Virus record (IMG/VR): IMGVR_UViG_2671180727_000013
Span: 1 to 17,658 of that record
Strand: one strand, 5' to 3'
Length of the DNA: 17,658 nucleotides
From: a virus
Lineage: Duplodnaviria; Heunggongvirae; Uroviricota; Caudoviricetes
Shown in pieces: positions 1-16,201 of this stretch (within the stretch, counting starts at the first letter, position 1; the number at the start of each line of letters is the position of its first letter). A program made the translations under genes and the position numbers. The notes under the pieces are model-generated. The model had not been told where the DNA came from, did no database searches, and worked only from the letters and a program-made list of their open reading frames with translations.

Positions 1-46
1 CTGCCCGTTGACGGACTTCAGGGGAAAAACGAGTATTTTTAGTCAT
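1..46 (-). CDS. IS3-family transposase OrfA, N-terminal 15 codons only (runs off window)
   Basis: ATG at 46..44 preceded by AAGAGG Shine-Dalgarno; translation MTKNTRFSPEVRQRA; frame open to window edge. Confidence 0.55.
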   Translation of the reverse strand, partial: MTKNTRFSPEVRQRA

Positions 47-100
47 CCTGTTTACCTCTTTCTCAGGAAGTTTAGTCTCCAGGATTCCCGGGGCGGTTCA
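1..100 (-). mobile_element. IS3-family insertion sequence, terminal ~100 bp (element continues beyond window start)
   Basis: Minus strand from position 100 reads TGAACCGCCCCGGGAATCCTGGAGACTAAACTTCCTGAGAAAGAGGTAAACAGG then ATG at 46..44. It starts with TG as IS3-family ends do. The ORF it opens (MTKNTRFSPEVRQRA...) matches my recollection of IS629/IS1203-like OrfA N-termini. Not verified by search. Confidence 0.6.
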
Positions 101-563
101 GTATGACCGTTTCTGCTTTGAACTCCGGTACACCAACGAACTCTTTAACCTTCATCTGGTAGCCGGTTCTGTCAGTTTTGATGACTTCCTGTTTGCCCTC
201 TATAAACTGCTCGCGCCACTCATCTCGACGGGAAGCTGGCATGATCAGCAAAACGTTAGTCATGTCCGTGACCTTCCTCCAGTACTCGGCCCAAATATTC
301 TGTTTCACCCATTCCAGATCGACTTTATCCAACCAACCTCGATTTAAACGCGAGCGATCTTCATCTGGTCGATGGTTTAGTCTCAGCAGGCGATTAATCA
401 TGTTGTGGCGTTCGTCGCCATAAACGAAGTCGTGAACCTGATACATGAAGGCGATCTCTTTCTCGCACTCGGCCACAATTTCGTGGATGACGTTCATTTC
501 CTGCCGATAGTCGATAGCAGTGTTTGAGTTGGCATCGTCGATGATGGAAAGGGCTGTATTCAT
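72..563 (-). CDS. hypothetical protein; last ~9 codons (LNRPGNPGD) are read from the IS terminus, so the native 3' end is probably disrupted or replaced
   Basis: 163-aa ORF; ATG at 563 with GGTG 6 nt upstream; IS boundary at 100/101 lies inside the reading frame. Confidence 0.5.
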   Translation of the reverse strand: MNTALSIIDDANSNTAIDYRQEMNVIHEIVAECEKEIAFMYQVHDFVYGDERHNMINRLLRLNHRPDEDRSRLNRGWLDKVDLEWVKQNIWAEYWRKVTDMTNVLLIMPASRRDEWREQFIEGKQEVIKTDRTGYQMKVKEFVGVPEFKAETVILNRPGNPGD

Positions 564-603
564 AATTGCACCATTAAGAAGTGATTTGTTTAATGGTGCA
601 ATT
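564..603. repeat. perfect 14-bp inverted repeat (AATTGCACCATTAA / TTAATGGTGCAATT) with 12-bp spacer, abutting the start codon at 563
   Basis: Read directly: 564..577 is the reverse complement of 590..603. On the minus-strand mRNA the 3' arm covers the GGTG ribosome-binding site. Confidence 0.7.
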
Positions 604-666
604 ATTTCAAAAATGAAAAGGTACTAAATAGAAATAAACAGGCAATCCTTCAAATAAAGGCATTGG

Positions 667-1281
667 CTAATCATACTTGGAGGTATTTATCACCAGAATT
701 TTGTTTGTATAAATCTTCTTAATATCCCATGTGACATTACCGGAATACCATTGACCGTTATATACTTGGTTTCCAGTTGCACCTGTCATTGTTACATAGA
801 CAGGTCTGTCGTAATCGGTTCGTCTATAGTTATATACTCCAACCATAGCAGGCATTACCGCACATGGATACCCCATATCTATTGTAAATTGAGGGTCAGA
901 AATAGTGATAAGTTTCGCATCAAGGGGCATCATCTCACCGTGATACACCATTGCGCCTGCGCTGTTATACATGGCAATGCCATAGCCAGAATGTGGTAAC
1001 ACCATATCAGAAAAAGCATAAACTGTTATTGTTCCGGGGCTACCATTTACCTGATGCAATCTGAGAGCATTGTATCCGTTACTATGCTCATGAATAAACA
1101 TCATGTTCGCCTTATTACTGCTTTTTATGAAAAAAAAACATGATTTGTTTGATGGGATTGATGTTTGAAAAACAGAACCTTTAGATGTAGACATTGTCCC
1201 TTTATTAATCAGATTTTGCGGAGTAAATTCTGGACTCATCCACAAACTTCCATCTGATTGAGTAATTGACATCCCGAACAT
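667..1281 (-). CDS. hypothetical protein, Tyr/Asn/Gly/Thr-rich, encoded in visibly AT-rich DNA
   Basis: ORF 667..1338 trimmed to the ATG at 1281 (MFGMSIT...), which sits 2 nt after the TAA of the upstream gene with TGGGGA as SD. Contains a T9 run (plus 1130..1138) encoding FFF. Confidence 0.5.
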   Translation of the reverse strand: MFGMSITQSDGSLWMSPEFTPQNLINKGTMSTSKGSVFQTSIPSNKSCFFFIKSSNKANMMFIHEHSNGYNALRLHQVNGSPGTITVYAFSDMVLPHSGYGIAMYNSAGAMVYHGEMMPLDAKLITISDPQFTIDMGYPCAVMPAMVGVYNYRRTDYDRPVYVTMTGATGNQVYNGQWYSGNVTWDIKKIYTNKILVINTSKYD

Positions 1282-1283
1282 AA

Positions 1284-1565
1284 TTATCCCCAGTATGTGT
1301 ATATGTAAGAACCAAGCCCCGTATATAAATTTGACCAACTAACCGTATTTCCATTAATAGTAACTGTTGGAACAGGTAAATTAATGTAGTTGTCGTTGTT
1401 AAGAGGCATCAATGACCACACGGCATGTAGCGATTTACCCGGTGGCGGATTGGAGTACGTCTTAGAGCCTGATGACGCAGTAAATCGATCAAGAAAAAAA
1501 ATAGGAGTAAGGAAGCCAGTAACGTTAATTCCTTTATTGTTGTAAATCCCTGTACCGTATGCCAT
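1284..1565 (-). CDS. hypothetical small protein (93 aa), Tyr/Asn/Gly/Thr-rich
   Basis: ATG at 1565 with AAGGA SD 6 nt upstream; TAA at 1284; contains a T8 run (plus 1494..1501). Confidence 0.5.
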   Translation of the reverse strand: MAYGTGIYNNKGINVTGFLTPIFFLDRFTASSGSKTYSNPPPGKSLHAVWSLMPLNNDNYINLPVPTVTINGNTVSWSNLYTGLGSYIYTYWG

Positions 1566-1592
1566 TTTTCATCCTTGTTTTTTATCAACACA

Positions 1593-1616
1593 ATATGGCC
1601 GATCATGCGGCCATAT
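1593..1616 (-). other. intergenic stem-loop (9-bp stem ATATGGCCG/CGGCCATAT, 6-nt loop) between the 189-aa and 93-aa genes
   Basis: Inverted repeat read directly; no clear U-tract after it on the minus strand, so a processing or attenuation role is as likely as termination. Confidence 0.3.
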
Positions 1617-1620
1617 CAGA

Positions 1621-2190
1621 TCAATTAGAGCTTTGAAAGGCTTTGTGTGGCTGTGTTGCGAGGTTATGTCGATGGCTTAACTCACGCATCATGTCTTCAA
1701 GCCGACTCTTTGTGTCGTCGAGTTGGTCGGCCATTGCTCCCAAAAGCTGACGAACGGCCATCGGATCATCGCTGTTTAGTGATGGCATTTTATAACCCGC
1801 CTGAGAAGACATAAGATTGAACGCAGACATCAACATCGTTAGAGAGGATTTAAGCCCAGCAATTTCACGATCTTTGCTGGCAATAATCGCCTCACTCTTG
1901 TTAGTGTCATCAGTTCGTTGAGTCTCGCTCACCATATCCAAAGTCGCCTGCAACTTATCAGCGCGCTCTTTTTCAGCAAGATAATGAACACCGAAATGAT
2001 GTGCTAAAGCTACAACCTGAGTTGGCTCTTCAAAGGTGGACTCAAAATTAAGTGCTGTAACCACTCTCTCAAATATGGAAACGTCTTCTATTCCTCGAAG
2101 AATGGCTAACATTTTGACCAGTTCATTAGCATCCATTTCTTCGAATAAGGCGTTTTGTTCATCAGCTATCGCTTTGCATTTCTTGCACAT
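1621..2190 (-). CDS. hypothetical protein (189 aa), begins MCKKCK
   Basis: ATG at 2190 preceded by the conserved leader AGGAAAAACAC and the upstream cassette; no family recognised. Confidence 0.55.
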   Translation of the reverse strand: MCKKCKAIADEQNALFEEMDANELVKMLAILRGIEDVSIFERVVTALNFESTFEEPTQVVALAHHFGVHYLAEKERADKLQATLDMVSETQRTDDTNKSEAIIASKDREIAGLKSSLTMLMSAFNLMSSQAGYKMPSLNSDDPMAVRQLLGAMADQLDDTKSRLEDMMRELSHRHNLATQPHKAFQSSN

Positions 2191-2204
2191 GTGTTTTTCC
2201 TAAT

Positions 2205-2227
2205 GCTTAAACAAGTTGTTTTCTTAT
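2205..2227 (-). promoter_or_regulatory. conserved upstream cassette, copy 1 (minus strand ATAAGAAAACAACTTGTTTAAGC), 14 nt upstream of the 2190 start
   Basis: One of three near-identical 23-nt elements with palindromic core AAACAAcTTGTTT, each followed by the leader AGGAAA(A/G)(A)CAC ATG. Confidence 0.5.
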
Positions 2228-2294
2228 TGGCTTTATTGTGATGTGGCATAAAAGGGGAGCAAGCTAAACGTAAAGGTGCAAACTCTCTATTTCG

Positions 2295-2327
2295 GTCAAC
2301 GAAACACAAGGGCCATTTGGCCCTTGT
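2295..2327 (-). terminator. putative intrinsic terminator after the 52-aa gene
   Basis: 9-bp stem ACAAGGGCC/GGCCCTTGT with 4-nt loop (2306..2327), followed on the minus strand by GTTTCGTTG. Confidence 0.45.
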
Positions 2328-2329
2328 CA

Positions 2330-2488
2330 TTAACACGTTGCTTTACGGACTAGCGGATAAGCGAAGTAGATCGCCAGACCAATGAGGACGCCATCAGAAA
2401 TGACAGACATCATCTTTCCCGTAAAATCCACCAACACCGCCATCACCAGAAGAGCAATGACGATCACAAGCCGGAATCTCTCAAGCAT
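2330..2488 (-). CDS. small hydrophobic protein (52 aa; MLERFRLVIVIALLVMAVLVDFTGKMMSVISDGVLIGLAIYFAYPLVRKATC), predicted membrane protein
   Basis: Not in the ORF track (below 60 aa). ATG overlaps the TerB-like stop as TAATG; two hydrophobic segments; terminator hairpin directly downstream. Confidence 0.45.
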   Translation of the reverse strand: MLERFRLVIVIALLVMAVLVDFTGKMMSVISDGVLIGLAIYFAYPLVRKATC

Positions 2489-2913
2489 TAGAGATAAGCA
2501 TCCAGTGACAACTGAAGCGCCTGGGCGATCTTTTTAAGTGCCTGCTCTTCTTGTTCACCAATGCCGTCCTGATCGGCAATATCAAGGCACAGACACAGTA
2601 CATCTACTGCATCATTAGTCCCGGCCACATCAGCCAGCTCACGTAAAGCCTGGGCATTAGCGCGGCGCGGTGAGGCTTCGTATTGAGCACGAATATTGGC
2701 GCTCATTTGGGCAATCTCACCAGCAAACGGAGAAAACGCAGGCAGAGCTGCAATTGTTTTCTCAAGAATGGAAATTTCCTTTGCGTCGCATGTGCCATCG
2801 GCATAGGAGATCATGTACGCGCCCCACACGGTGGCTTCAACCGCATCTCGGTTCTCCATTTTTTTGACCTCGATAACAGCTTTACGAGTTTTCTTTTTGA
2901 ATAAACCTAACAT
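2488..2913 (-). CDS. TerB-like protein (tellurite-resistance TerB fold)
   Basis: 141 aa; ADG...E and LCLCLDIADQDGIGEQEEQALKKIAQAL segments resemble the two TerB repeats; ATG preceded by the conserved leader AAAGGAAAGCAC. Confidence 0.5.
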   Translation of the reverse strand: MLGLFKKKTRKAVIEVKKMENRDAVEATVWGAYMISYADGTCDAKEISILEKTIAALPAFSPFAGEIAQMSANIRAQYEASPRRANAQALRELADVAGTNDAVDVLCLCLDIADQDGIGEQEEQALKKIAQALQLSLDAYL

Positions 2914-2933
2914 GTGCTTTCCTTTTGTTATTT

Positions 2934-2956
2934 GTTAAAACAAGTTGTTTTCTAGT
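2934..2956 (-). promoter_or_regulatory. conserved upstream cassette, copy 2 (minus strand ACTAGAAAACAACTTGTTTTAAC), 20 nt upstream of the 2913 start
   Basis: Same 23-nt element as at 2205..2227 and 13155..13177; perfect 7-nt palindrome arms AAAACAA/TTGTTTT. Confidence 0.5.
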
Positions 2957-2965
2957 TACATGAAT

Positions 2966-3008
2966 TGCTTACGAAAAGACGGTCAATGCATATGCACTAA
3001 CAACCGTC
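2966..3008 (-). terminator. putative terminator-like hairpin after the 62-aa membrane protein gene
   Basis: GACGGT / ACCGTC stem enclosing the palindrome TGCATATGCA, followed on the minus strand by TTTTCG; short stem and long loop, so weak. Confidence 0.35.
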
Positions 3009-3195
3009 AGAAATAACCAAGTACCGAACCAACTGGAAAAACAAAAATCCCAACAACACGAGCCAAGGTCATACCAGCCTGAAACTGGAGATCGCCAGAG
3101 CAAACAAGTTTTATAATGTTCGATACCCAACCGGCGGCCATGAGGGCAAGAATTGCCAGCCAAATTTTTCCAAAGTGATTTGAAAACCAGTTCAT
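3007..3195 (-). CDS. small membrane protein (62 aa, two hydrophobic segments)
   Basis: ATG overlaps the upstream TGA as ATGA (translational coupling); AAGGCGG SD; hydrophobic sequence WLAILALMAAGW ... VVGIFVFPVGSVLGYF. Confidence 0.5.
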   Translation of the reverse strand: MNWFSNHFGKIWLAILALMAAGWVSNIIKLVCSGDLQFQAGMTLARVVGIFVFPVGSVLGYF

Positions 3196-3410
3196 ACAAC
3201 CGCCTTAGTCACAGCATGATCCTGAGTAACTGGATGAACTTGAGGTATCGCATCCACCGTCATCCCATCCAGAGTGACAGGACGCTCTACTGGAGTGGTG
3301 GTAATTGTCGTCGACGGAGGTGTGGTGATGGATGAACCCGGCATCAAAAGGCTCTGGCCGGCTGGAACGGCTATCGTCGCCAGTGAAACTATAATGAGAA
3401 CGTAGGCCAT
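3192..3410 (-). CDS. small secreted Thr/Pro-rich protein with N-terminal signal peptide (72 aa from the ATG at 3410)
   Basis: MAYVLIIVSLATIAVPAGQS looks like a type I signal peptide with an AxA-like site; AGAGG SD upstream; no lipobox Cys. Confidence 0.45.
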   Translation of the reverse strand: MAYVLIIVSLATIAVPAGQSLLMPGSSITTPPSTTITTTPVERPVTLDGMTVDAIPQVHPVTQDHAVTKAVV

Positions 3411-3699
3411 TGGTTTCAGCCTCTTTCTTTGAAAATTTTCCATTCGAACTGTCCTTGTTGTTTTTCTCCTTCACTAAAGGCCGTGTACTTTTCGCTTCGC
3501 GTGAAGAACCAGAGGTAACAATCGCCCCCACGTTCGCAACAACTGACGCTTGCTTATCTAAACGTTCATTCAGCAACCGAACGGCAGTCTCTAGTTCATC
3601 AAGACGTGACAGAACACGACCGCTAAATAATTCGGCCAAAATTTGACGTAGTGAACGAGGACGTTTAGTTGCAGAAGTGAAATAGGTTTGACGTGCCAT
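3205..3699 (-). CDS. hypothetical protein; N-terminal ~90 aa credible, C-terminal low-complexity part overlaps 3192..3410 in another frame and may be spurious
   Basis: ATG at 3699 with GGAG SD 5 nt upstream; 3' end uncertain. Confidence 0.4.
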   Translation of the reverse strand: MARQTYFTSATKRPRSLRQILAELFSGRVLSRLDELETAVRLLNERLDKQASVVANVGAIVTSGSSREAKSTRPLVKEKNNKDSSNGKFSKKEAETNGLRSHYSFTGDDSRSSRPEPFDAGFIHHHTSVDDNYHHSSRASCHSGWDDGGCDTSSSSSYSGSCCD

Positions 3700-3714
3700 G
3701 TGGACTCCATCCAG

Positions 3715-3750
3715 TGTCAGAAAGAGTTGCGGCTGGCGATTGCCAGCCGC
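3715..3750 (-). terminator. putative terminator-like hairpin downstream of the RNase H gene
   Basis: 9-bp GC-rich stem GCGGCTGGC/GCCAGCCGC with 4-nt loop (3729..3750), followed on the minus strand by AACTCTTTCTG. Confidence 0.4.
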
Positions 3751-3844
3751 CTTTCTCGTTCCATCCTGGAACTGTGTCTTACCGACACATTGTCATCCTG
3801 ACGCCGATAAGATACATGATTTAAAATGATAGGTAAACACTTAC

Positions 3845-4438
3845 TTACTGTTTGTTGTAAACAAAACCAATATCTTTCTTGTGAGGCATATCTGCTGCGG
3901 AAAAAGCTGCGATCTTCGCGAGTCGATCACATATTTCATTTTCACGATGCCCGGCGTGACCTTTAACCCACTTCCAGCGAACATTATGTCGACTTGCAGC
4001 CTCATCCAGACGCTTCCACAGATCAACATTCTTTACCGGTTTTTTGTCAGAAGTCACCCATCCATTGCGTTTCCACCATTTCATCCACTGTGTCATGCCG
4101 TTTTTCAGATACTGGCTATCAGAGTGCAAAATAACGTTGCATGGATATTTCAAACGCTCCAGCCCGATAAGTGCCCCCATCATCTCCATGCGGTTATTGG
4201 TGGTGCTATGAAAACCATCTGAGAACTCGCGTTCCTCACCACGATACTGGAGAACTATACCGTAACCGCCCGGGCCACCCGGATTTTTAAGGCAAGAGCC
4301 ATCACTGAAGATTTTCACGGTTTTAAGCTGGGGATTGAACTCTACGACAGGCGTTGTGGAATTGGTGCGGGGAGAATTTTTGTTTTTGGCTTTTTTGCGA
4401 GTTTTTTCTTGCGATCGGGCTGGTGTCTTCGTCGTCAT
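3845..4438 (-). CDS. rnhA: ribonuclease HI-like protein with a ~40-aa basic N-terminal extension
   Basis: [57 protein letters not shown] match E. coli RNase HI motifs. Start set at the ATG at 4438 (MTTKTP) because AGGAG lies 5 nt upstream; the track's longer ORF start has no SD. Confidence 0.85.
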
Positions 4439-4439
4439 A

Positions 4440-5021
4440 TAAACTCCTGAATCAAGCGCCGCGCCGATTTTTTCCTCGCGCGTGCGCACACGCGTGCGTG
4501 TTAATAATTATTAAAATAAACAAATTACTTCCCAGAACAGGTTTTTATAAACCTGAACTGAACGAACGAAGTGAGTGAAGTTCACCTCGAACGAAGTGAG
4601 AGGTTGTCTTTTCAGGTAATACTCTCCCAGGGAGGTGAGTATAAAAATCCCTCACCAACCTGGTCGTTTCATAACCTGAAAAGTTATGGCCTAAGTCTAC
4701 TGCCAGCTTAGACTTGGGAAGTTATGGATGACAGCACCCCAGAACCGAGATCTTCCCACACTTTATGAAGGGGAGTACTGGATTCAACCTCTCTAAACAC
4801 CCCAGACTCGACAATCATAAAGTGACCCTTGTCTCCGCTCACTTTGGTTCCCCCTTCCCCGACACCTAAACGGCACCGGTTCTACGCTGGTAGTGAGCTT
4901 TTTTAAACCTGACGCCAGTGACGCTTACCCCCACCCATCAGGTCGAGTCTCCAGTCTACGACTGGAAACTATCAGATCTTAGCACTTACAATTCACTTTA
5001 TGAATAGTTTGTACTTATCTA
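4440..5021 (-). other. ORF-poor, repeat-rich structured intergenic region (candidate ncRNA, regulatory hub or origin)
   Basis: No ORF of 60 aa or more on either strand; 12-nt direct repeat GAACGAAGTGAG at 4564..4575 and 4589..4600; several hairpins and long-range inverted repeats (details in findings). Confidence 0.4.
4477..4500. repeat. 24-nt perfectly alternating pyrimidine-purine GC-rich tract (Z-DNA-prone), with embedded palindromes
   Basis: CGCGCGTGCGCACACGCGTGCGTG read directly; includes CGCGTG-CGCA-CACGCG hairpin; followed by 14-bp AT palindrome TTAATAATTATTAA at 4501..4514. Confidence 0.6.
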
Positions 5022-5252
5022 TCATTGTGATTGATTATTTTCTCTACCATGTAGTTGAACATTCAAGGCAAACACCTCATTGATCAACTCACCTAAAAGC
5101 TGTTCAACAAGTTCGCGATGCTCGCCAAGATGCAAGCACTTAATTGCCCATTCGTACAAGTTGAAAGCCTGCTCACGATCTTTCATCATTTCACGAGCCT
5201 GGGCCAGAAAATCGCTCTCTACGAGCGCAACGACATTAGTCGGGTATGACAT
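5022..5252 (-). CDS. hypothetical small protein (76 aa from the ATG at 5252)
   Basis: Track ORF 5022..5276 trimmed to the internal ATG that has AAGGA 7 nt upstream; the first ATG lacks an SD. Confidence 0.45.
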   Translation of the reverse strand: MSYPTNVVALVESDFLAQAREMMKDREQAFNLYEWAIKCLHLGEHRELVEQLLGELINEVFALNVQLHGRENNQSQ

Positions 5253-5340
5253 GTTGGTTTCCTTAAAGTGGTTCATAAAATCGATTTTAAAGCGTCTGGG
5301 AAGGGGTTCTAGTGGATTCTGTAGTGATGTTCAGGTCTGG

Positions 5341-5416
5341 AGTCTCTGATACAAAACAGCCTGCTTCCGTATATTAATAATTAATATGTAGTTATTTATA
5401 TATACAGAAGCAGGCT
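5341..5416 (-). terminator. terminator-like long hairpin after the methyltransferase gene
   Basis: Arms 5358..5374 and 5400..5416 pair over 17 positions with one mismatch; 25-nt AT-rich loop containing ATTAATAATTAAT; minus-strand tail GTTTTGTAT. Confidence 0.35.
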
Positions 5417-5437
5417 AATTACAGACGCCAGAACAAA

Positions 5438-6031
5438 CTAAGCAGCCTTCTTTGATGGTCTTTTTTTCCTGATCACATTCGCAGGATCATACCCTCCCAG
5501 ACTTTTCATGACGTCCAAAGGGATCTTGCTTATAGAGTGCCCAGCGTCCTGACAAAATCCTCGAAAAACAACGAGCATACTGCCACCTGGGTTGATGTTT
5601 ACTTCTACCTGACCCAGATTGACGTCAGGCTCGACAAACGCTACGCGGCCACCAGACAGAATAATCGTCTCATTCGCACACTCTGTTGCACGCTCATACC
5701 ACTTTGTATCTAGGGATTGAGGAATTAGCATCACTGTTGTAACTCCGCGAGCCTGCTCACGTATAGCCGCATCAATCCAGGGGGAGATTTTGGAGTAGGG
5801 TGGATTGAGGAAGGCAATTGTACCTGGCTGTCCCCATTCAGATTTCAAAGCATCACGCTCAACGCCTATGAAATTAGGCAGCTTTGCATTGTCCTTGTTG
5901 CAGGCAACGTCAACATCAAATGTCACTCCAAGATAACGTTGAATGGCAGAAAACAGCCAGTCAGGTGTTCTCCAGAGGTCACGAAGAGAGTTGTCGCGCT
6001 TTCGCTGTTTGATTTTTTCGGCTGCAATCAT
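5438..6031 (-). CDS. phage Dam-family DNA N6-adenine methyltransferase
   Basis: N-terminal WRTPDWLF...FDVDVAC and catalytic NPPYS (motif IV) in the order typical of the phage Dam family (PF05869-like); 197 aa; no adjacent restriction-endonuclease gene seen. Confidence 0.75.
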   Translation of the reverse strand: MIAAEKIKQRKRDNSLRDLWRTPDWLFSAIQRYLGVTFDVDVACNKDNAKLPNFIGVERDALKSEWGQPGTIAFLNPPYSKISPWIDAAIREQARGVTTVMLIPQSLDTKWYERATECANETIILSGGRVAFVEPDVNLGQVEVNINPGGSMLVVFRGFCQDAGHSISKIPLDVMKSLGGYDPANVIRKKRPSKKAA

Positions 6032-6090
6032 CTTCTTTCTCGATAGGTAAGTAAATACCTATTTTTGCATTTGATTTTATGTCTGGCAAT

Positions 6091-6139
6091 CAAATAAAAC
6101 GCGCCAGAAATGCAAACGAGAAGCTCTCTGGCGCGTTTT
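6091..6139 (-). terminator. intrinsic terminator after the acidic-protein gene
   Basis: Stem AAAACGCGCCAGA / TCTGGCGCGTTTT (6097..6139), flanked by A/T runs so it has a U-tail in both orientations; minus-strand tail GTTTTATTTG. Confidence 0.6.
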
Positions 6140-6143
6140 TGTG

Positions 6144-6174
6144 GTGCTGGGTATGTGATTGGCTTACCCAGCAC
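6144..6174. other. second tandem hairpin (10-bp perfect stem GTGCTGGGTA/TACCCAGCAC, 11-nt loop)
   Basis: Read directly; no U-tract, function unknown. Confidence 0.4.
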
Positions 6175-6214
6175 TATAAAGCTCTCTATGGGCTTTATTT
6201 TCAGTAGGGGAACG

Positions 6215-7024
6215 TCATCCAATAGTGTACTCCGCGACAAACTTCTTAACGATCGGTGATTCTTCGTTCAATGTTAGATTTCCACCGCCTCTAACGGCAA
6301 TTCCTGTCGCTGGAAATACAGCCATCATTTGCCCAGCCTGAGTTGACGCAGTGTTAAGCGGATACGGTTTTTCTGGATTGCTCATTAAAGCAATCTTAAT
6401 ACTATTACTTGTAGCCTTCTTTTCTGTGAGAAGGTGTCTCATGGAAATTACCGTGTAAACACTAATATCTGGACCTCCGCTAAACCAATTAAGAAGGTTT
6501 AATATCTTATCCTTTGCTTTGACAGGCGCGTTATCGTAAGCGTCTAAGAAAATATCTTTTTCTAAGCCCGCTTTATTGAAAAACGAATCATCTTTATCAC
6601 TTAAAGTAAAACGAGGACCTCTTGCAGTACGAGCTTTTTTATTTGTATTGCTATCATTTGACTGTTGAACTTTTAATTCATCATTAACCTCAACACACTC
6701 TTCAACCTCAATAAATCCCAATTGTTCTGGCTCGTTTTCGGCAGCTTCAACACTTTCAGCGTTAATTACGTTTATAGGCTCATGCGCTAACTCCAACTCA
6801 TTTAAAGCAGAGCTGAAATCACCTGCTTTTTCTTCATTGAACAGTTCTTCGGCAACATCATCAGAACTCATGGCTACGCCAGCATCTAGGCCGAGCAGCA
6901 GATCGTCAATATCATCAGTATTTTCAACCTGTGCAGCTTTTTTTACTGGTTCATCAAGTGATTGCAACATGGCTGTCAGCTCGTCCAGATCATCATTTGT
7001 CATTACATTTTCAACCGAACTCAT
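6215..7024 (-). CDS. hypothetical protein with strongly acidic N-terminal half (Asp/Glu-rich)
   Basis: 269 aa; AGGAG SD 8 nt upstream of the ATG; N-terminal ~120 aa dominated by D/E; no catalytic motif recognised. Confidence 0.55.
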   Translation of the reverse strand: MSSVENVMTNDDLDELTAMLQSLDEPVKKAAQVENTDDIDDLLLGLDAGVAMSSDDVAEELFNEEKAGDFSSALNELELAHEPINVINAESVEAAENEPEQLGFIEVEECVEVNDELKVQQSNDSNTNKKARTARGPRFTLSDKDDSFFNKAGLEKDIFLDAYDNAPVKAKDKILNLLNWFSGGPDISVYTVISMRHLLTEKKATSNSIKIALMSNPEKPYPLNTASTQAGQMMAVFPATGIAVRGGGNLTLNEESPIVKKFVAEYTIG

Positions 7025-7133
7025 GTAAGTCTCCTTCTGTTTGGTTACATTTGCGTTTCGATGGCTACATTTTGACTAAACCTATCAGGCGGAAAAGTAT
7101 TAAATACAGGCAGGAAATGATTGAAAGGCGACT

Positions 7134-7178
7134 GTTCTTTAAAAGAAAGCCTACTTTAAACTTTTTAAAGTAGGCTTT
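7134..7178 (-). terminator. intrinsic terminator immediately after the exonuclease gene
   Basis: ~15-bp stem (7146..7160 with 7164..7178) and 3-nt loop; T-runs on both sides (minus tail TCTTTTAAAG, plus tail TTTTGTTTT). Confidence 0.6.
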
Positions 7179-7182
7179 TGTT

Positions 7183-7740
7183 TTACACAATTTCAGAGGG
7201 TAATTTAAAAAATCCGTACTTATTACGTGCCTTAAAGAAGCATTGCATCATTAAGTTTGTGTCATATAAGGCACTATGTGCTTTGGCATGATCGTATATA
7301 AAGCCAAGAGAGAAGGCCAACTCTTCAAGGCGGGGACGTTTACCGTCTTCTGTGGCCCACAATCCCGATAACATAGTATCTATAACAGGAACTTCTGGCA
7401 GTCTTACTCCATACCCTGAAAACTCGTGTCGAATAAATGGTATATCAAATGCTTCGCCGTTATGAGCAACCCACACACTACATGCCCCCATATAAGCGCC
7501 AATTTCGCTGGCATGATTTGACAACAAAGGTTCAGCTGCGAGCTGTTCCAATGAAATGCCATGAACGGCTTGAGCTTTCGGATCTATGTTTCTGCGAGGG
7601 TTAAAACGCATCTCCAGACTATCAATATGTCTCTGTGTCTCCAGTTCATAGCGGGTAATTGCGATTTCAATAATTTTATGACCAGCAAGGAAATCCAGTC
7701 CCGTAGACTCGATATCGATGCCTGCAACAATCGTTGTCAT
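7183..7740 (-). CDS. DnaQ-like DEDDh 3'-5' exonuclease
   Basis: Exo I GIDIESTGL, Exo II HNGEAFDIPF, Exo III HSALYDT; AAGGAG SD; 185 aa. Confidence 0.8.
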   Translation of the reverse strand: MTTIVAGIDIESTGLDFLAGHKIIEIAITRYELETQRHIDSLEMRFNPRRNIDPKAQAVHGISLEQLAAEPLLSNHASEIGAYMGACSVWVAHNGEAFDIPFIRHEFSGYGVRLPEVPVIDTMLSGLWATEDGKRPRLEELAFSLGFIYDHAKAHSALYDTNLMMQCFFKARNKYGFFKLPSEIV

Positions 7741-7749
7741 CAGAACTCC

Positions 7750-8169
7750 TTACAACTTCTTAGCGCCCTTAAGTAGTGCGCTACGTACAAATTGAGCCGC
7801 TTTTTTCAAAGTTTCTTCACTGGTTTCACAGACAATCGGATCTTTCCACTTACCTGACACAGTGTTGAGAATATTGATTTGGTTGCTATCCAGACAAACA
7901 GAGATATAAAGCACCGTGCCACCAGCCAGCATCAAATGCATAGGAAACAGAGGCTTTTTACTGCCTTCACTGAACTGAGACATGGCGATGTTAATGGCTT
8001 CACCCACTTGTGTACCAACAAGCCCCTGCGCAGTTTCGAATATGGCACGAATAGCCAGACGAGCCTCTCGATCGCTCATAAGCGACCGGGAATGTTCGTC
8101 CGCTACACGAATCAAAGCCTCTGTTGTTTTCCGATCCAGTTCATCTTCAAGCAACATTTCACTAAACAT
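7750..8169 (-). CDS. hypothetical protein (139 aa)
   Basis: ATG with AAGGA SD 7 nt upstream; its stop overlaps the RBS of the exonuclease gene; no family recognised. Confidence 0.5.
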   Translation of the reverse strand: MFSEMLLEDELDRKTTEALIRVADEHSRSLMSDREARLAIRAIFETAQGLVGTQVGEAINIAMSQFSEGSKKPLFPMHLMLAGGTVLYISVCLDSNQINILNTVSGKWKDPIVCETSEETLKKAAQFVRSALLKGAKKL

Positions 8170-8230
8170 TTTTTATCCTTAACCCATTTTGAGAGTTTTA
8201 TTGTCGCAATGTCGAAGAGGCGAACAATTT

Positions 8231-8875
8231 CTAATGAACGGTCACTCGGCCACAGAACCGGTTTTCTATCTTTTCTACAGCGTTATCTAGCATTCTCATC
8301 ACTGATCTGGCTCTTGCTTCAACCGTGCGATATCGGTTGGAAACGACGAAGGTTTGCAGATCTCCCCTTTGCGGATGCAGGTGAATTTTTGTCAGTTCCC
8401 CGCACATCAACGCATCAATACGAGCGACATACAGACGGTCTAATGATGCTCGTTGTGACCGCAAGTAATCTCGCTCTGAGAGAGCGACCCCCGGGCGTAG
8501 GCCAGCAATGGCGTTAAAGTTTGAAATAGCAGTTTTGTGGCAAAACTTTTCGATATCGAGGGCTAACTCAATACACCGATCTTCATTTGTATGGCCGACC
8601 AAATCCAACGTGTAGGCCATAACATCAGCAGGTGTGCGATCGATAACAAAGCCTTCAACACCACGCGTAAGTAGCTCTATATGCTTTGCTATTTCCATTT
8701 GAATCTGAAGCCGCTCATATAGAGGCATAGAATCACCTACTCGAACACCGAGGCGGCTCATCAAACTTCCGACACCAGCATCCACGTAAGGGATTCCGTA
8801 ATGTTTGTCGATATATTTAGCCAGGGTTGTTTTCCCACTGCCCTGAGCACCAGTGATCCCAATCCGGTAATCCAT
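8231..8875 (-). CDS. P-loop nucleotide/nucleoside kinase-like protein
   Basis: Walker A GITGAQGSGKTT near the N-terminus (dephospho-CoA kinase / uridine kinase style); start overlaps the DHFR stop as TAATG; substrate not assignable. Confidence 0.5.
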   Translation of the reverse strand: MDYRIGITGAQGSGKTTLAKYIDKHYGIPYVDAGVGSLMSRLGVRVGDSMPLYERLQIQMEIAKHIELLTRGVEGFVIDRTPADVMAYTLDLVGHTNEDRCIELALDIEKFCHKTAISNFNAIAGLRPGVALSERDYLRSQRASLDRLYVARIDALMCGELTKIHLHPQRGDLQTFVVSNRYRTVEARARSVMRMLDNAVEKIENRFCGRVTVH

Positions 8876-9351
8876 TACGACCTTCTGTATACGATCTGCG
8901 AAAAGCCAGGCTCTTCCTCGCTGGCTCGTTGGGTATAAGCTGTTTCAACAGGCACAAAGCCTAAATTACGCATCATGCTTGCCGGGAAGAATGCATCGGC
9001 GTTTGGCACATCAACGCCGATGTGGGAGAGCCAAATCTCTTCAACATGCGGCATGAATAGCGAGTAAATTTGTTCCCCGCCAATCACCCACACAGGCTCT
9101 GGTAATCGCAACACATCATCCACACCAGCAGGGTAGAATCCATTTGGTACAAAGCCATGAGAGCGCGTCAAAACGAGGTTATGACGCTCTGGAAGAGGGC
9201 GTTTGAGACTTTCCATCGTTTTACGCCCCATAACGACAGTGGCGTTTTTGGTGAGTCTCTTAAATAGCTTCAGATCGGTAGAACAACGCCAGGGGAGTTC
9301 ATTCGCTATGCCGATCTCATAGTTACGGCCAACAGCAGCGATCATCTTCAT
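8875..9351 (-). CDS. folA: dihydrofolate reductase
   Basis: MKMIAAVGRNYEIGIANELPW...VVMGRKTMESL...RPLPERHNLVLTR...VWVIGGEQIY aligns with E. coli FolA motifs; 158 aa; ATGA overlap with upstream gene. Confidence 0.85.
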   Translation of the reverse strand: MKMIAAVGRNYEIGIANELPWRCSTDLKLFKRLTKNATVVMGRKTMESLKRPLPERHNLVLTRSHGFVPNGFYPAGVDDVLRLPEPVWVIGGEQIYSLFMPHVEEIWLSHIGVDVPNADAFFPASMMRNLGFVPVETAYTQRASEEEPGFSQIVYRRS

Positions 9352-9761
9352 TTGCTCACCTCATAGATGACCGGTCGATGGTGAGAGTCGGCTAAAGCGG
9401 CACGGAGTCGAGGATCGTGCACCAGCGCAGCGATAAGCAGATCGCCTTTATGCTCCGCTAATGTGCGCTTAATATGCTTCTCATAACTGGTGCCATTCGG
9501 TACGAGATGAAGCCAGTCATAATCAACGCCAAAATCTTTCAGCCATCGTTTAGTTGGCGCTTCAAGAGTTTCAGAGCGGCTACTGATAAGCACCACTTCA
9601 GCCCCTGAGCGAGCAAAACCACGCAACATACGGCTGGTGGGGAAAATGAGTTCATCACCGGCAATGAGCTGGCCTGCATCCGCGTCAGATACTGATTTAC
9701 GATGGCTGGCATTTGCCAGCACACCTTCAATTTCGCATAAGACATACATACCTCTTGCCAT
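9348..9761 (-). CDS. hypothetical protein, possibly HAD-like fold with Glu in place of the motif I Asp residues
   Basis: Start set at the ATG at 9761 (MARGMYVLCEIEGVL), 1 nt after the thymidylate synthase stop; hhhExEGvL then VVLISSRSE then K...GD pattern is reminiscent of HAD motifs I-IV. Weak. Confidence 0.3.
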   Translation of the reverse strand: MARGMYVLCEIEGVLANASHRKSVSDADAGQLIAGDELIFPTSRMLRGFARSGAEVVLISSRSETLEAPTKRWLKDFGVDYDWLHLVPNGTSYEKHIKRTLAEHKGDLLIAALVHDPRLRAALADSHHRPVIYEVSK

Positions 9762-9762
9762 A

Positions 9763-10866
9763 TCACACCGCCACTGGAACCTTGATCCACGATAGAGGGT
9801 CATAGCCAAGAATTAAAACCTCGTCCCATTTGAAATCATCCAACTCTGACCATTCATGAGGGAAAATAACGACCGGATCTGAATGCTCTGGAGCCTGTCG
9901 TTTCATTAGCTCACACACACCTTCCATGTGGTTGTTGTACAAATGCACGTCAAAGCCAAAATGCACAAATGCACCGGCCATGTGACCCGTAATCTTCGCG
10001 AGAAAATGAGTGAGAATGCCATAGCCAGCAATATTGAATGGCATACCAACAAAAGTGTCTACGCTACGCTGTACGAGGCAGGAGTTGAGGATGCGTTTGG
10101 GGATTCCAAGTTCATCCAGTTCAGCTTCAGTAACACTGCCGTCCATCTCCAGATCGTATAGCATCTTGGTGTAGATAGACTCGTAACCGAGGCGACTGTG
10201 TTGAAGACCAATGTCAGTTGCCATCGTTAAACGGGTTTCAAAATCCAGCTCACGACTCCACAAAGAGAAGACAAAGTGGCAAGGTGGCAGTTTCATATCC
10301 TCAAGCTCGCCTACGTTCCATGCGTTAAGCATGATGCGACGATCGGTAGGGTTCGTGCGCAGTGTATCGACAATACGCTGTAGCTGATCGATTTCACGGG
10401 ACAGCACTACGCGATCTTCACTGATACCCAGGTATCCCTCGACTTTGTACCCGCGTTCACGGAAAGTAGCGATCTTGCTCAGATATTCACTATGGCTCAC
10501 GATGCGGGTATCTTCCCATCGACGCCACTGCTTACCGTAAACCGGCCCCAAATCGCCATTCTCATCGGCCCATGCATCCCAAATCTTAACGCCGTTATCC
10601 TTGAGAAATTGGATGTTGCCCGTGCCTTTCAGATACCACTCAAGTTCGACAAGCAGTGGCTTAAGATTTACCGCCTTTCCAGAAATAAGCGGCACAGTCC
10701 CACCAGTAAGCATGTAGTAAGAGGGAACGTAGCAGGTGCTTAAAGTACCAGTGCCTGTGCGATCATCAGCCTGCACGCCGCTTTTAAGCACCGTCTCAAT
10801 AACTTTTGCATACGATGCGTTTGTTACCTGACCGTTCGTATGCTCACGATTCAAAAGGAGTGACAC
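9763..10866 (-). CDS. thyA: thymidylate synthase (ThyA-type) carrying two large insertions
   Basis: DRTGTGTLS, IWDAWADENGDLGPVYGKQWRRW, DRRIMLNAWN, LPPCH, QRSVDTFVGMPFNIAGY (Asn retained, so dUMP-specific), HLYNNHM. Start ambiguous: GTG at 10866 has GAGG 5 nt upstream; the track's GTG at 10893 has no SD. Confidence 0.85.
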   Translation of the reverse strand: MSLLLNREHTNGQVTNASYAKVIETVLKSGVQADDRTGTGTLSTCYVPSYYMLTGGTVPLISGKAVNLKPLLVELEWYLKGTGNIQFLKDNGVKIWDAWADENGDLGPVYGKQWRRWEDTRIVSHSEYLSKIATFRERGYKVEGYLGISEDRVVLSREIDQLQRIVDTLRTNPTDRRIMLNAWNVGELEDMKLPPCHFVFSLWSRELDFETRLTMATDIGLQHSRLGYESIYTKMLYDLEMDGSVTEAELDELGIPKRILNSCLVQRSVDTFVGMPFNIAGYGILTHFLAKITGHMAGAFVHFGFDVHLYNNHMEGVCELMKRQAPEHSDPVVIFPHEWSELDDFKWDEVLILGYDPLSWIKVPVAV

Positions 10867-10940
10867 AAAAACCTCACAAAGATAAGTAACCACTTATTCA
10901 TTGCGTGAGTTTACATTTATTGAGAGAACAAGACCAGACA

Positions 10941-10969
10941 GATAAAAAAATGGTGGCCATAGGCCACCA
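10941..10969 (-). terminator. intrinsic terminator after the 289-aa gene
   Basis: 8-bp stem TGGTGGCC/GGCCACCA with 3-nt loop, followed on the minus strand by TTTTTTTATC. Confidence 0.7.
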
Positions 10970-11037
10970 AAAACGAATAGTTGTTTCAGAAATTTAACGC
11001 GCCAACGCAATATACACAGATAGATAACTACCTACAA

Positions 11038-11907
11038 TTATTTTTTGATCATTCCGTACATTGCTGAGGCTTTAGCTTGCTCAACAAAGGAGGATAAATC
11101 GACATCACTATAGGTTGGAGACTTCAGAATCTTTCCATCGGAAATTCGAAAACCGATCATCTTATCGGTGCCATCAGCATGGCGGAATCCCAGGTCTGAA
11201 GAGTCGTATTTGCAGTTGGCCACAGCCTGGCGACGTTCCTCAACATCAGCAGGCCATAATTTTGTCATGTTAGACCGATGAATTTCGCCAACCAGCTCGA
11301 CTACATTGATACCGAGGAAATCAGCCAGTCGATAGGTCATCATGCACGCCACATAGATTTTGTTCATGACACGGCGCAGTTCCTGAATCAGCTCAGAATC
11401 CTTAACAGTCTTGTTCTCAAGTTTATCTGCCAGCTCTTCGAGCATACATGACGCCTCACGAGCTTCCTGAAATGGCATTGCCATATCATCGAAAACAGTG
11501 TTACCGGGCACAAAAATTGTCTGCATAAAGCGATCAATGCTCTGTTCCTGCGTGTAATAGGTCATGCCGGTAGAAATACCACCTTTGATGGCGACCATCG
11601 TACCAACACCAACGTATAAAAAGTCGGCCATTGCATCCAGCAGTTGCTCAATATCCCCATTCATTGCGGCTGGAATACCTTCCACTACAGCTTCTTCATG
11701 AATCAGGCTTGCACGGAGACGAAGCAGCTCTGGTGTCGGCATAACGCGTCTCGGATGCTGGAAGAGTTCATGAAACTGATCGACCATCTTGTAAATACTT
11801 TCAGTAGCTACACCATGACCTTCATGCAACTCATATGGTTCTGGCTTAAATCCAATGAGTCGATCGGTGGCAAGTTTCAGGTGGTCAGTCAGTTTGGTAA
11901 AGTTCAT
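11038..11907 (-). CDS. putative all-alpha NTP pyrophosphohydrolase (MazG / dimeric dUTPase-like), tentative
   Basis: 289 aa; two EE-x-x-E ... D-x-x-x-D/E acidic helix patterns (LIHEEAVVEG...DIEQLLDAMADFLYV; EAREASCMLEELADKLE). Assignment by motif impression only. Confidence 0.35.
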   Translation of the reverse strand: MNFTKLTDHLKLATDRLIGFKPEPYELHEGHGVATESIYKMVDQFHELFQHPRRVMPTPELLRLRASLIHEEAVVEGIPAAMNGDIEQLLDAMADFLYVGVGTMVAIKGGISTGMTYYTQEQSIDRFMQTIFVPGNTVFDDMAMPFQEAREASCMLEELADKLENKTVKDSELIQELRRVMNKIYVACMMTYRLADFLGINVVELVGEIHRSNMTKLWPADVEERRQAVANCKYDSSDLGFRHADGTDKMIGFRISDGKILKSPTYSDVDLSSFVEQAKASAMYGMIKK

Positions 11908-11942
11908 GCTAGTTTTGTTCCTTCTTAATTCTTGTGATCCAT

Positions 11943-11967
11943 TGTGGCCCAGCGTTGCCAGGCCACA
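11943..11967 (-). other. stem-loop in the nrdB to downstream-gene spacer (7-bp stem TGTGGCC/GGCCACA, 11-nt loop)
   Basis: Read directly; no U-tract, so probably not a terminator. Confidence 0.3.
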
Positions 11968-11984
11968 TAATGCTTTGTATCGGT

Positions 11985-13127
11985 TTACAGGTCAGCAAAC
12001 TGGCTTAGAGAAGCCTTATCCACGGTAGAATCGATCTGACCTACCAGATATGTGCTTTGCTCTGCCTCTTGTGGTGCAATTTGCAGTGTGTCGGTTAACA
12101 ACCACTTGTTCATCCAGACCAGCGGATCGGTGGTAACCTCTGGAAATAAAGCCTTCAGGCCAAGACGATTCATAGCCAGATTGGTGCGGTATTTTACATA
12201 GGTTTTGAGAATATCCGCGTTTAAACCAATCATCGAACCGTCTTTGAAGAGATAGTCTGCCCAGTTCATTTCTTGTTCGGCGACTGATTTCATGGTGTCG
12301 TAAATGACGTTTTCTTCATCAGCAGCAATCTCTTTCCACAATAAACCTTCGCGACCGGTACGCATGAAGCGGATCATGCGTTCAGTTCCTTCGCAATGCA
12401 GAGCTTCATCACGGGCAATAAAGCGCATAATTTTGGTGTTACCCTCAAGCAACTTCCGTTCGCCAAAGGCAAACGTACATGCAAAACTTACATAGAAACG
12501 GATCGCCTCAAGCGCATTAATGGACACCAACGTGCGGAAAAGCTGACGGTGCAAAGGGTATGGCTCCCAGCCATATTCATTTACGTACAGACGTTCAAAC
12601 TCCTTCTCACCTAACGACTGGCGCTCGCAGGTCATCCCATAAAGCCTGTCATATTCAGCAGAGATACTGATCGCTCGGTTGATGATTTCTTCATCCGTAA
12701 CAATACCGTCAAAAACAATGCTCGGATCGTCCACCATGCCACGAATAATGTGGGTGTAGCTGCGGCTATGGATAGTCTCAGAGAAAGACCACGTTTCAAC
12801 CCACGTTTCCAGTTCAGGAATAGAGATAAGCGGCAGCAGCGTTGCATTTGGACTACGTCCCTGAACTGAATCGAGTAACGTTTGATAACGGAGATTGCTC
12901 AGAAAAATGTGACGTTCGTGGTCCCGCAGCTTCGTGTTGAAGTCGATACGATCGCTCGAAATATCAACTTCTTCCGGCCGCCAGAAGAAAGACAATTGAC
13001 GTTCAATCAACTTTTCAAAATCACGGTATTTTTGCTGATCGTAACGTGCCACGTTGACAGATTGTCCGAGGAACATAGGCTCTTTGGTTGCATCATTAGC
13101 ACCCAAACGGAACGTTGAATATGACAT
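11985..13127 (-). CDS. nrdB: ribonucleotide reductase class Ia small (beta) subunit
   Basis: 380 aa; long stretches near-identical to E. coli NrdB as I recall it ([90 protein letters not shown]). Uninterrupted, no intron. Confidence 0.95.
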
Positions 13128-13154
13128 GTGTTTTTCCTTTTTCTTTTTTGGTGC

Positions 13155-13177
13155 GTTTAAACAAGTTGTTATCTTAT
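13155..13177 (-). promoter_or_regulatory. conserved upstream cassette, copy 3 (minus strand ATAAGATAACAACTTGTTTAAAC), 27 nt upstream of the nrdB start, plus a partial extra TTGTTTAAAC copy at 13180..13189
   Basis: Third copy of the 23-nt element; lies between the nrdA terminator and the nrdB RBS, followed by the leader AAGGAAAAACAC ATG. Confidence 0.5.
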
Positions 13178-13195
13178 GTGTTTAAACAAGGCTTA

Positions 13196-13228
13196 CAAAT
13201 CAAAGAGAAGGTGGGGATATCCCCCACC
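13196..13228 (-). terminator. intrinsic terminator immediately after nrdA
   Basis: GC-rich hairpin GGTGGGG-ATATC-CCCACC (13210..13228) followed on the minus strand by TTCTCTTTGATTTG. Confidence 0.6.
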
Positions 13229-13233
13229 ATATG

Positions 13234-15549: not shown

Positions 15550-15552
15550 GTA

Positions 15553-15588
15553 TCACCAAATAAAGAGGGCCACTATATTTAGTGGCCC
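15553..15588 (-). terminator. intrinsic terminator between the RuvC-like gene and nrdA
   Basis: 9-bp stem GGGCCACTA/TAGTGGCCC with 4-nt loop (15567..15588), followed on the minus strand by TCTTTATTTGG. Confidence 0.6.
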
Positions 15589-15613
15589 ATGTTAATAGAT
15601 AAGCACTTACCTA

Positions 15614-16192: not shown

Positions 16193-16201
16193 ATAGTCTC
16201 C

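Follow-up and report, generated by a model that had tools for sequence, protein, structure and literature searches.

Two adjoining genes on the minus strand of a 17,658-nucleotide (nt) stretch of viral DNA (IMG/VR record IMGVR_UViG_2671180727_000013, positions 1 to 17,658; hereafter the window) differ clearly in composition from the genes around them. What do these genes encode, and how did they come to lie where they are? From position 101 on, the window shares 98% identity with the Escherichia phages CMS-2020a and Cyrano, which are SSU5-like phage-plasmids of about 108 kb, and it is itself from an SSU5-like phage-plasmid of E. coli. All sizeable open reading frames (ORFs) of the window are carried by the minus strand. 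Gene A (1284..1565, minus strand) starts with ATG and encodes 93 amino acids (aa). Gene B (667..1281, minus strand) also starts with ATG and encodes 204 aa; in the ORF list its frame starts farther upstream, at a TTG (1338). The genes are co-oriented, the small gene before the large one, with 2 nt between the A stop (1284) and the B start (1281). In our view the two genes probably form a receptor-binding-protein (RBP) cassette for the tail tip of a siphophage, horizontally acquired and displaced from the tail genes.

The mechanism that we propose is as follows. A, a small beta-sandwich, and B, an all-beta "hand", would be made as separate chains that together are equivalent to a single-chain protein of ~315 aa. 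The two would dock non-covalently at the C-terminal tip of J, the trimeric central tail fibre, which in the phage-plasmid family ends in a conserved ...IDVYDDNNVLRVRIGRL motif and has no receptor-binding domain of its own. B would then contact an outer-membrane protein receptor and trigger irreversible adsorption. For this phage-plasmid, the docking on J, the incorporation into the virion and the binding of a receptor are all points that we infer.

Composition, families and predicted folds of A and B

An earlier note on this DNA had described an AT-rich two-gene island encoding proteins rich in Y, N, G, T and S, and window-based G+C (GC), GC at third codon positions (GC3) and amino-acid counts confirmed the description. 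The GC content is 38.6% in 667..1565 and 45.9% in the rest of the window. Only 2.9% of the 899-nt windows have a GC as low, the others being found at ~6.4 kb. GC3 is 0.36-0.37 in A and B versus 0.42-0.60 in most neighbours. The residues Y+N+G+T+S make up 40% of B and 51% of A versus ~18-37% of the 19 other window ORFs, and K+R+D+E make up 13% of B and 6% of A versus ~18-32% of the others. The neighbours had been taken for metabolism genes; they are actually a methylase gene and hypothetical genes, a minor point. The cassette has a GC of 38-43% in JenP1, Bas04, a Shiga toxin (Stx) phage, SSU5 and a lambdoid prophage, where the flanks have 42-53%. The low GC is an intrinsic property of the cassette family in every host phage examined.

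Over its full length, A matches phrog_557 ("outer membrane protein") with an E-value of 4.7e-29, and B matches phrog_425 ("membrane associated protein") with an E-value of 2.2e-72. Judged by reading the sequences, neither A nor B has a signal peptide, a lipobox or a transmembrane segment. Their N-termini (MAYGTGIYNNKG and MFGMSITQSDGS) carry no hydrophobic h-region, and long hydrophobic stretches occur nowhere in either protein. Since signal peptides and hydrophobic segments are lacking, the membrane names given by PHROG are not credible, and we regard them as misnomers. Pfam gave no usable match for A or B; DUF6453 (PF20051) reached 15.4 bits against a gathering threshold of 25, in a partial alignment (77-138). 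NCBIfam and PADLOC gave zero hits for A or B, and no match came from sequence searches of the PDB, in which A, B and the profile of the fused family (see below) served as queries.

A profile search of 1.8 billion representatives found 114 relatives of B, mostly of 200-230 aa. A subset of these relatives is 307-325 aa long and matches B only from about residue 100 onward. When the profiles were compared with this fused family via hhalign, the A profile aligned at 93.9% (E 1.6e-7; A residues 2-80 to residues 3-80) and the B profile at 99.7% (E 1e-26; B to residues 100-310). A and B are thus the two halves of a protein that elsewhere is one chain of ~315 aa. The mapping of A and B to consecutive parts of single-chain homologues is a Rosetta-stone argument for one functional unit. 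A and B also open with a common motif, M-x-[YF]-G-x-x-I-x-x-x-x-G … [FL]-T-P, and the fused homologues of 307-325 aa hold this start motif twice, at the N-terminus and at about residue 100. The doubled start motif suggests an ancient internal duplication of a docking hairpin.

The structures of both proteins were predicted via AlphaFold2. The B model, obtained with a 24-sequence alignment, is all-beta, with a predicted local distance difference test score (pLDDT) of 92.2 and a predicted template modelling score (pTM) of 0.87. The A model is a small beta-sandwich of six strands with a pLDDT of 79.7. The sole strong structural match of the B model is a receptor-bound phage RBP; in the Foldseek search with B, the RBP chain of phage Oekolampad came third, with a probability of 0.96 and a template modelling score (TM-score) of only ~0.3. 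The likeness of the B model to the Oekolampad RBP may reflect a shared fold of uncertain depth, not family membership. As the "hand-like" all-beta subunit, B is the likely receptor-contacting part. The earlier view of a beta-rich adhesin or fibre tip rather than enzymes is supported by the all-beta prediction for B, by the match to a phage RBP, and by the identity of the pair as a cassette of the tail-tip RBP locus.

The same pair beside the tail-tip gene of other phages

A is followed by B, co-oriented and tightly spaced, in all 28 of the 28 loci examined. In Nonagvirus JenP1 (also in JenP2 and BRET), the pair is located between the "central tail fiber J" gene and the lateral fibre genes, on the opposite strand, and B is 83% identical to that of the window. 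In the T1-like BASEL phage FritzSarasin (Bas04), an 89-aa lipoprotein gene and the A and B homologues are convergent with J, and B is 39% identical. In a lambdoid prophage (L026), the pair stands directly 3' of a J gene whose product ends in …VLRVRMGKL, and B is 75% identical. The short-tailed Stx phages of the 933W/phi24B type have the order Phage_Tail_Tip gene, A, B and Lom, with a B that is 61% identical; this Stx-type allele is present in ~185 phage records. Similarly, SSU5 has the order J, fibre, adhesin, A', B', Cor and holin, in which SSU5_023 (A') and SSU5_024 (B') are distant homologues of A and B (hhalign 95.7% and 98.5%).

The position that the pair takes in these unrelated phage groups is what the BASEL papers call the "bona fide RBP locus". 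Maffei et al. found that in small siphoviruses the allele at this locus always agrees with the terminal receptor, and that these alleles undergo horizontal exchange (PMC8594841). The terminal receptor of FritzSarasin/Bas04 is BtuB (S5 table, PMC8594841). A preprint with 1,050 genetic screens similarly reports that the receptor tracks the alleles at the RBP locus, and flags the C-terminal tip of GpJ as one determinant of compatibility (10.64898/2026.04.02.716166). With AlphaFold2-multimer, Matusiak et al. obtained models of exactly this type of split pair, from Dhillonvirus, phi24B and Littlefixvirus, in which the tip of the trimeric spike is capped by the "hand-like" protein (PMC12309495). A cryogenic electron microscopy preprint lists phi24B gp54 (204 aa) among the proteins of the virion, describes additional density at the tip of the needle, and proposes gp54/gp55 as the BamA binder (10.64898/2026.04.10.717836). 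No published receptor data were found for JenP1, JenP2 or BRET. In Bas04, an unannotated 89-aa ORF upstream of A and B (bas04_0025, L031 4508..4777) carries the lipoprotein signal MKKLIAVIATVAALTGC and is probably the BtuB-specific superinfection-exclusion factor of the Bas04 RBP locus.

For the receptor of the phage-plasmid itself, BtuB (from Bas04, a 39% allele) and BamA (from phi24B and the Stx phages, a 61% allele) may be taken as leads only. LamB was also considered as a lead and was rejected: KurtStettler, the BASEL phage that targets LamB, carries an extended J and lacks the A/B pair, so this comparison gives no lead.

The C-terminus of J fits the docking that we propose. Across SSU5 and 17 SSU5-like contigs from IMG/VR, J hardly varies in its final 75 residues, which end in …IDVYDDNNVLRVRIG[RLQ]L, as they also do in Cyrano. 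The same terminal motif (…VLRV.IG..) closes the J of JenP1, Bas04 and the lambdoid prophage, as well as the Stx tip protein. On the same backbone, the Klebsiella element pJN2-26 (L129 1..9936) has a J of 4045 aa without the VLRVRIG tip motif, and the A/B cassette is absent at both loci looked at; its host-recognition architecture therefore seems to differ. A separate A/B cassette is found where J stops at the tip motif, and is missing where J is extended. The TolC- and LamB-targeting phages of BASEL form a parallel pattern of extended J (PMC8594841). A co-variation of the C-terminal 399 aa of J with the A/B allele was also considered and rejected, because contigs with 98-100% identical A/B have J C-termini down to 62% identity. 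Since all variation of J lies upstream of the invariant last 75 aa, co-variation neither supports nor refutes the docking.

The arrangement in Cyrano indicates how the cassette may have entered the E. coli lineage. In SSU5, A', B' and the Cor superinfection-exclusion lipoprotein are located between the tail fibre genes and the holin gene (L035 16357..17464). Cyrano has J, the fibre, a 200-nt gap (L032 26537..26738) and the holin gene, and the fibre directly 3' of J is a P1 S-like fibre of 1341 aa. When all six-frame ORFs of the Cyrano genome were searched with the A, B and fused-family profiles and the SSU5 proteins, one A and one B were found, both in the window-type cassette, and the same six-frame search of the complete genome found no Cor homologue. 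In Cyrano the cassette lies at 81.9-82.8 kb and J at 17.7-22.4 kb, ~60 kb apart. Most likely, horizontal exchange brought the cassette into the E. coli lineage, where it stands in for the SSU5-type A'/B'/Cor, but at a new site. The Cyrano lineage would so have lost the exclusion factor together with the old RBP cassette.

Insertion, allele exchange and homopolymer tracts

The blastn homology to Nonagvirus (JenP1, JenP2, BRET) is limited exactly to 667..1571, with ~76% nucleotide identity. This mobile module (minus strand, 905 bp) comprises both genes and the Shine-Dalgarno region of A, and AAGGA at 1572-1576 lies just outside it. In SSU5 and pJN2-26, the methylase gene directly adjoins the phrog_5508 gene, with no cassette at this site. 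On the downstream side (junction 604..666, minus strand), the homology to the methylase leader of SSU5/pJN2-26 resumes at ~640 (GCCTGT...). On the upstream side, a hairpin (1593..1616, minus strand) with the 9-bp stem ATATGGCCG/CGGCCATAT stands between the upstream phrog_5508 gene and A, where SSU5 and pJN2-26 have a G+C-rich terminator (in SSU5, GGGGGCGAAAGCCCCC followed by a T-run). This hairpin would mark the upstream edge of the insertion. Because SSU5 and pJN2-26 have the methylase and phrog_5508 genes adjoining with a terminator between them, the insertion can be placed at ~640..1620, where it would have replaced the SSU5/pJN2-26-type terminator. A consensus scan found no sigma-70-like promoter in 1566-1620 and no terminator belonging to the cassette. 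With the hairpin in place of the G+C-rich terminator, the cassette may be read through from the upstream genes.

Compared with a second phage-plasmid allele (L021/L028), the cassette is 83-86% identical and the flanks are 94-99% identical, with a sharp recovery at ~1450. The synonymous divergence (dS) between these alleles is 0.65-0.84, with a ratio of non-synonymous to synonymous divergence (dN/dS) of 0.08-0.10. The dN/dS is 0.05 against near relatives, 0.05-0.08 for A, and 0.05-0.12 for the cassette overall. These values are those of old alleles under purifying selection that have moved onto a young backbone, which is what one expects of a host-recognition module. The separate acquisition that the earlier note had suggested on the basis of composition is upheld by the empty site in SSU5/pJN2-26, by the exact limits of the Nonagvirus homology, and by the divergence of the cassette relative to its flanks. 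The cassette is also widespread. A 69-nt gene A probe matched 120 complete PLSDB plasmids of 102-126 kb from E. coli, Shigella and E. albertii.

Three further features of the surroundings were observed. The window interval 564..603 holds a perfect 14-bp inverted repeat (AATTGCACCATTAA / TTAATGGTGCAATT) that abuts the methylase start codon and is partly conserved in SSU5 and pJN2-26; it may serve the methylase as an operator or as a hairpin for translational control. Window positions 1..~101 are the end of an IS3-family element (TGAACCGCCCCGGGAATCCTGGAGACTAAAC…, minus strand), followed by an ORF (72..563) that starts MTKNTRFSPEVRQRA. This end, which we take to be IS629-like, matches many Stx-phage records with 100% identity. 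In all SSU5-like relatives the alignment begins at position 101; the element thus interrupts the gene for a 561-aa DUF4942 DNA methylase, truncating it after ~154 codons. At 2330..2913, P1 TciA-like (TerB family, 141 aa) and TciB-like (DUF3927, 52 aa) genes are found where SSU5 has the anti-repressor Ant. The Tci-like genes here versus Ant in SSU5 point to the stretch from RNase H to the methylase as a variable accessory hot spot of the phage-plasmid family.

The two long homopolymers are located exactly where the earlier note had placed them (A9 at 1130..1138 and A8 at 1494..1501 on the plus strand) and are the two longest of the window; no other in 17.6 kb exceeds 7. On the minus (coding) strand, the T8 tract (1494..1501) reads ATT TTT TTT CTT (I-F-F-L, A codons 22-25) and the T9 tract (1130..1138) reads TGT TTT TTT TTC (C-F-F-F, B codons 48-51). 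In mononucleotide shuffles of the 899 nt, two or more runs of at least 8 had P = 0.004. When synonymous codons were resampled from the genes' own usage with the protein fixed, tracts this long were obtained in 47% (A), 59% (B) and 27% (both) of the trials, a test that is somewhat circular because the tract codons sit in the sampled pool. A hand estimate without the tract codons would give roughly 0.1 for both tracts. The I-F-F-L and C-F-F-F motifs are conserved at the protein level, and these conserved motifs together with the AT-rich codon use explain the tracts. T9 occurs only in the window, L001 (Cyrano), L010, L048 and L053, and most relatives of 99% identity have TGC TTT TTC TTC; the T9 tract is lineage-specific, made by two synonymous C>T changes. 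T8 is found in all SSU5-like copies of the comparison, it is T6 in the lambdoid prophage, and both tracts are broken in Nonagvirus.

The tracts do vary in length. A change from T8 to T7, which is a -1 frameshift in A, was found in 18 contigs on three backbones (98.7%, 96.9% and 85% identical to the window), and a change from T9 to T7 in B was found in two contigs (L044 and L045). Two proteins in the databases, P0039 and P0040, are versions of A whose frame shifts at the T8 tract, and it is their contigs, 18 of 18, that have T7. The IMG/VR copies have T8 in 22 of 22 cases. A T7 query had an exact match in 0 of the 120 PLSDB plasmids, and 40 of 40 among the matches listed were T8. In P0030 (a Logan contig of 1,076 nt), T8 is shortened to T7 in A and a compensating shift follows ~16 codons downstream, so that 16 residues are scrambled and the frame is restored; this double shift may be real compensatory evolution or an assembly artefact. 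The truncated B proteins of 121-146 aa (P0018, P0020-23) were considered as T9 frameshifts and rejected as a gene-calling artefact, B being intact in most contigs examined. L041, L044 and L045 were the only contigs with genuine indels in the B tract. A programmed -1 frameshift fusing A to B was likewise rejected: the B frame is open to 1338 and a formal slippery heptamer, A_AAT_TTA (~1322-1328), lies in the A frame, but heptamer and spacing are not conserved. Homologues have TCGAACTTA or TCAAACCTG in place of the heptamer, and the 86% allele has another spacing. We read the tracts as incidental runs of Phe codons and recurrent frameshift hot spots, which sometimes would inactivate the putative RBP in plasmid-borne copies.

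Rival readings, significance and comparison with known systems

Several observations weigh against a displaced RBP cassette. The pair is not next to gpJ in the window, where its neighbours are the DUF4942 methylase and phrog_5508 genes, and it lies among early/accessory genes without a recognisable promoter of its own. No lipoprotein ORF is found beside the window cassette, so the superinfection-exclusion partner is absent there; the JenP1 cassette is also without an adjoining exclusion lipoprotein. The J tip motif was examined in relatives, and the tail module that belongs to the window is deduced from those of 98% identity. The TM-score of B to the Oekolampad RBP, the one experimentally proven RBP of the locus, is low, and the hhalign comparison of the A2, A3 and A4 profiles with that protein (bas18_0025) gave probabilities of <1%. 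The structural search with the A fold gave no informative match. Finally, Mondal et al. made 43 deletion mutants of the Stx2 phage Sp5, a podovirus, and list nine genes as essential for plaques/lysogeny on K-12; the J-like ORF71 is essential, and ORF72 (ECs1234, 92 aa) and ORF73 (ECs1235, 205 aa) are not among the nine (PMC5155283). The deletion primers for ORF72 and ORF73 are listed in the supplement (PMC5155283). The Sp5 pair appears to be dispensable in the laboratory, as judged by the list of essential genes and not by the per-mutant data (Fig 1B).

This apparent dispensability keeps alive a reading in which A and B are accessory tail-tip or assembly proteins at the J tip (decoration, chaperone or host-range modulator), and a P1 S-like fibre or J itself recognises the receptor. 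The large fibre directly after J in Cyrano agrees with such a role. Matusiak et al. offer a structural or chaperone-like function as an option (PMC12309495), one preprint notes "accessory proteins" co-localised with RBPs (10.64898/2026.04.02.716166), and phi24B gp55 was undetected in virions and gp54 was of low abundance (10.64898/2026.04.10.717836). Low copy number is, however, expected of a monomeric tip protein. The allele-receptor match of the small siphoviruses has no exception (PMC8594841), A and B together equal a single-chain protein that fills the RBP slot, B has a receptor-bound RBP as its best structural match, and where J stops at the tip motif it lacks a domain that could bind a protein receptor. 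We consider accessory proteins unlikely on balance. A pair of lysogenic-conversion or "moron" membrane proteins, expressed in the plasmid state to alter the cell surface or to exclude phages, is much less probable still. The PHROG category "moron" with its membrane names, the variable accessory region beside the TciA/TerB-like genes and the methylase, the lom-like position in Stx phages, and the strand opposite to the tail genes in JenP1 and Bas04 would agree with it. Neither protein, however, shows a signal peptide, lipobox or transmembrane segment by reading; published membrane-affinity estimates for homologues are far below that of Lom (PMC12309495). The real exclusion factors are separate lipoproteins (Cor in SSU5, the 89-aa protein in Bas04, Rtp45), PADLOC gave zero hits, and phi24B gp54 was found in virions (10.64898/2026.04.10.717836).

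A phase-variable adhesin, in which slippage at T8/T9 gives programmed on/off switching or frameshift products, as the earlier note proposed, is at least as improbable. The tracts are the longest in the window, and the recurrence of T7 alleles on three backbones, the two T9-to-T7 contigs and the compensated P0030 would fit it, so the suggestion that the tracts are prone to slippage stands as far as length variation goes; no sign of programmed switching was seen. The on/off switch itself is made unlikely by the scarcity of T9 among relatives of 99% identity, by tracts that are broken or shortened elsewhere and not kept at the nucleotide level where the amino acids are kept, by their expectation from codon usage, and by the uniform T8 of the IMG/VR copies and of the PLSDB matches listed. 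The A_AAT_TTA site is not conserved, the out-of-frame products are short and unconserved, and sequencing error is possible for some contigs. Very unlikely too, in our judgement, is a bolder idea: an RBP cassette uncoupled from the tail operon in which T8 (T9 in some lineages) is a heritable, reversible infectivity switch, and in which the RBP supplied in trans pseudotypes co-resident phages. A cassette outside the late operon could do so because lambdoid, T1-like, Nonagvirus and Stx phages have the J-tip docking motif in common, and the recurrent T7 alleles on three backbones and the one compensated double frameshift are compatible with a switch. If such a switch were true, plasmid lineages would drift between "infectious" and "plasmid-only" states.

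A displaced RBP cassette thus remains our preferred reading, and it bears on a widespread group. A/B is present under misleading names, including "hypothetical", in about 120 complete PLSDB plasmids of E. coli, Shigella and E. albertii and in hundreds of assemblies. As a likely host-recognition module, A/B is where the host range of the widespread SSU5-like plasmid-prophages should be sought. This group includes pLF82/Cyrano of adherent-invasive E. coli. Besides small siphoviruses, large temperate phage-plasmids would also take part in the exchange of this RBP cassette, which even at a distance from the tail genes can function or, at the least, be kept by purifying selection. A receptor prediction confined to the locus downstream of gpJ would overlook such a displaced cassette. 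The 61% identity to the Stx-phage pair would make the phage-plasmid a second, more tractable system for the question of the BamA-type RBP. This kind of cassette is already known, recently recognised and still misannotated. What is new is its presence in large E. coli phage-plasmids, ~60 kb from J, in place of the SSU5-type A'/B'/Cor, with recurrent T8 frameshifts.

The closest known counterparts are phi24B gp55/gp54, Sp5 ORF72/ORF73, bas04_0024/0023, JenP1 gp22/gp21 and SSU5_023/024, which share with the window pair the families, the order, the 2-nt spacing, the sizes (~93 and ~204 aa) and the low GC. The pairs of these phages are in the tail region, whereas the window pair is in the early/accessory region of a phage-plasmid. 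An exclusion lipoprotein accompanies the pair of Bas04 (the 89-aa protein) and that of SSU5 (Cor) and not the window pair. In the fused homologues (Pantoea phage Vid5, Pectobacterium phages and metagenomic sequences), A is the N-terminal domain and B the remainder of a single chain; the window proteins are two separate chains. The T1-like phage TR1 has a 320-aa DUF6453 protein between J and a lipoprotein; for DUF6453, the window proteins are below the threshold, and the fused homologues of alignment A4 are likewise without a match.

More distant systems can be compared as well. Rtp44 and the Oekolampad RBP are single chains that bind LptD (PDB 9RPT) and are partnered with an Rtp45-type exclusion lipoprotein, whereas the RBP candidate of the window has two chains. 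Their family has no detectable sequence similarity to A/B, and its global TM-score to B is low (0.3). T5 pb5, of ~640 aa, and the lambda J domain are unrelated in sequence to A/B, and the domain of lambda is part of J. T5 pb5/Llp and the domain at the C-terminus of lambda gpJ are functional analogues, being, as reported, monomeric or terminal RBPs at the tip of the central fibre that bind an outer-membrane protein (PMC9586334, PMC12309495). Similarly, the gp38 adhesin of Krishvirus, which lies 55 kb from gp37, is a precedent for a displaced receptor-binding gene (10.64898/2026.04.02.716166), in a myovirus and with a protein family unrelated to A/B.

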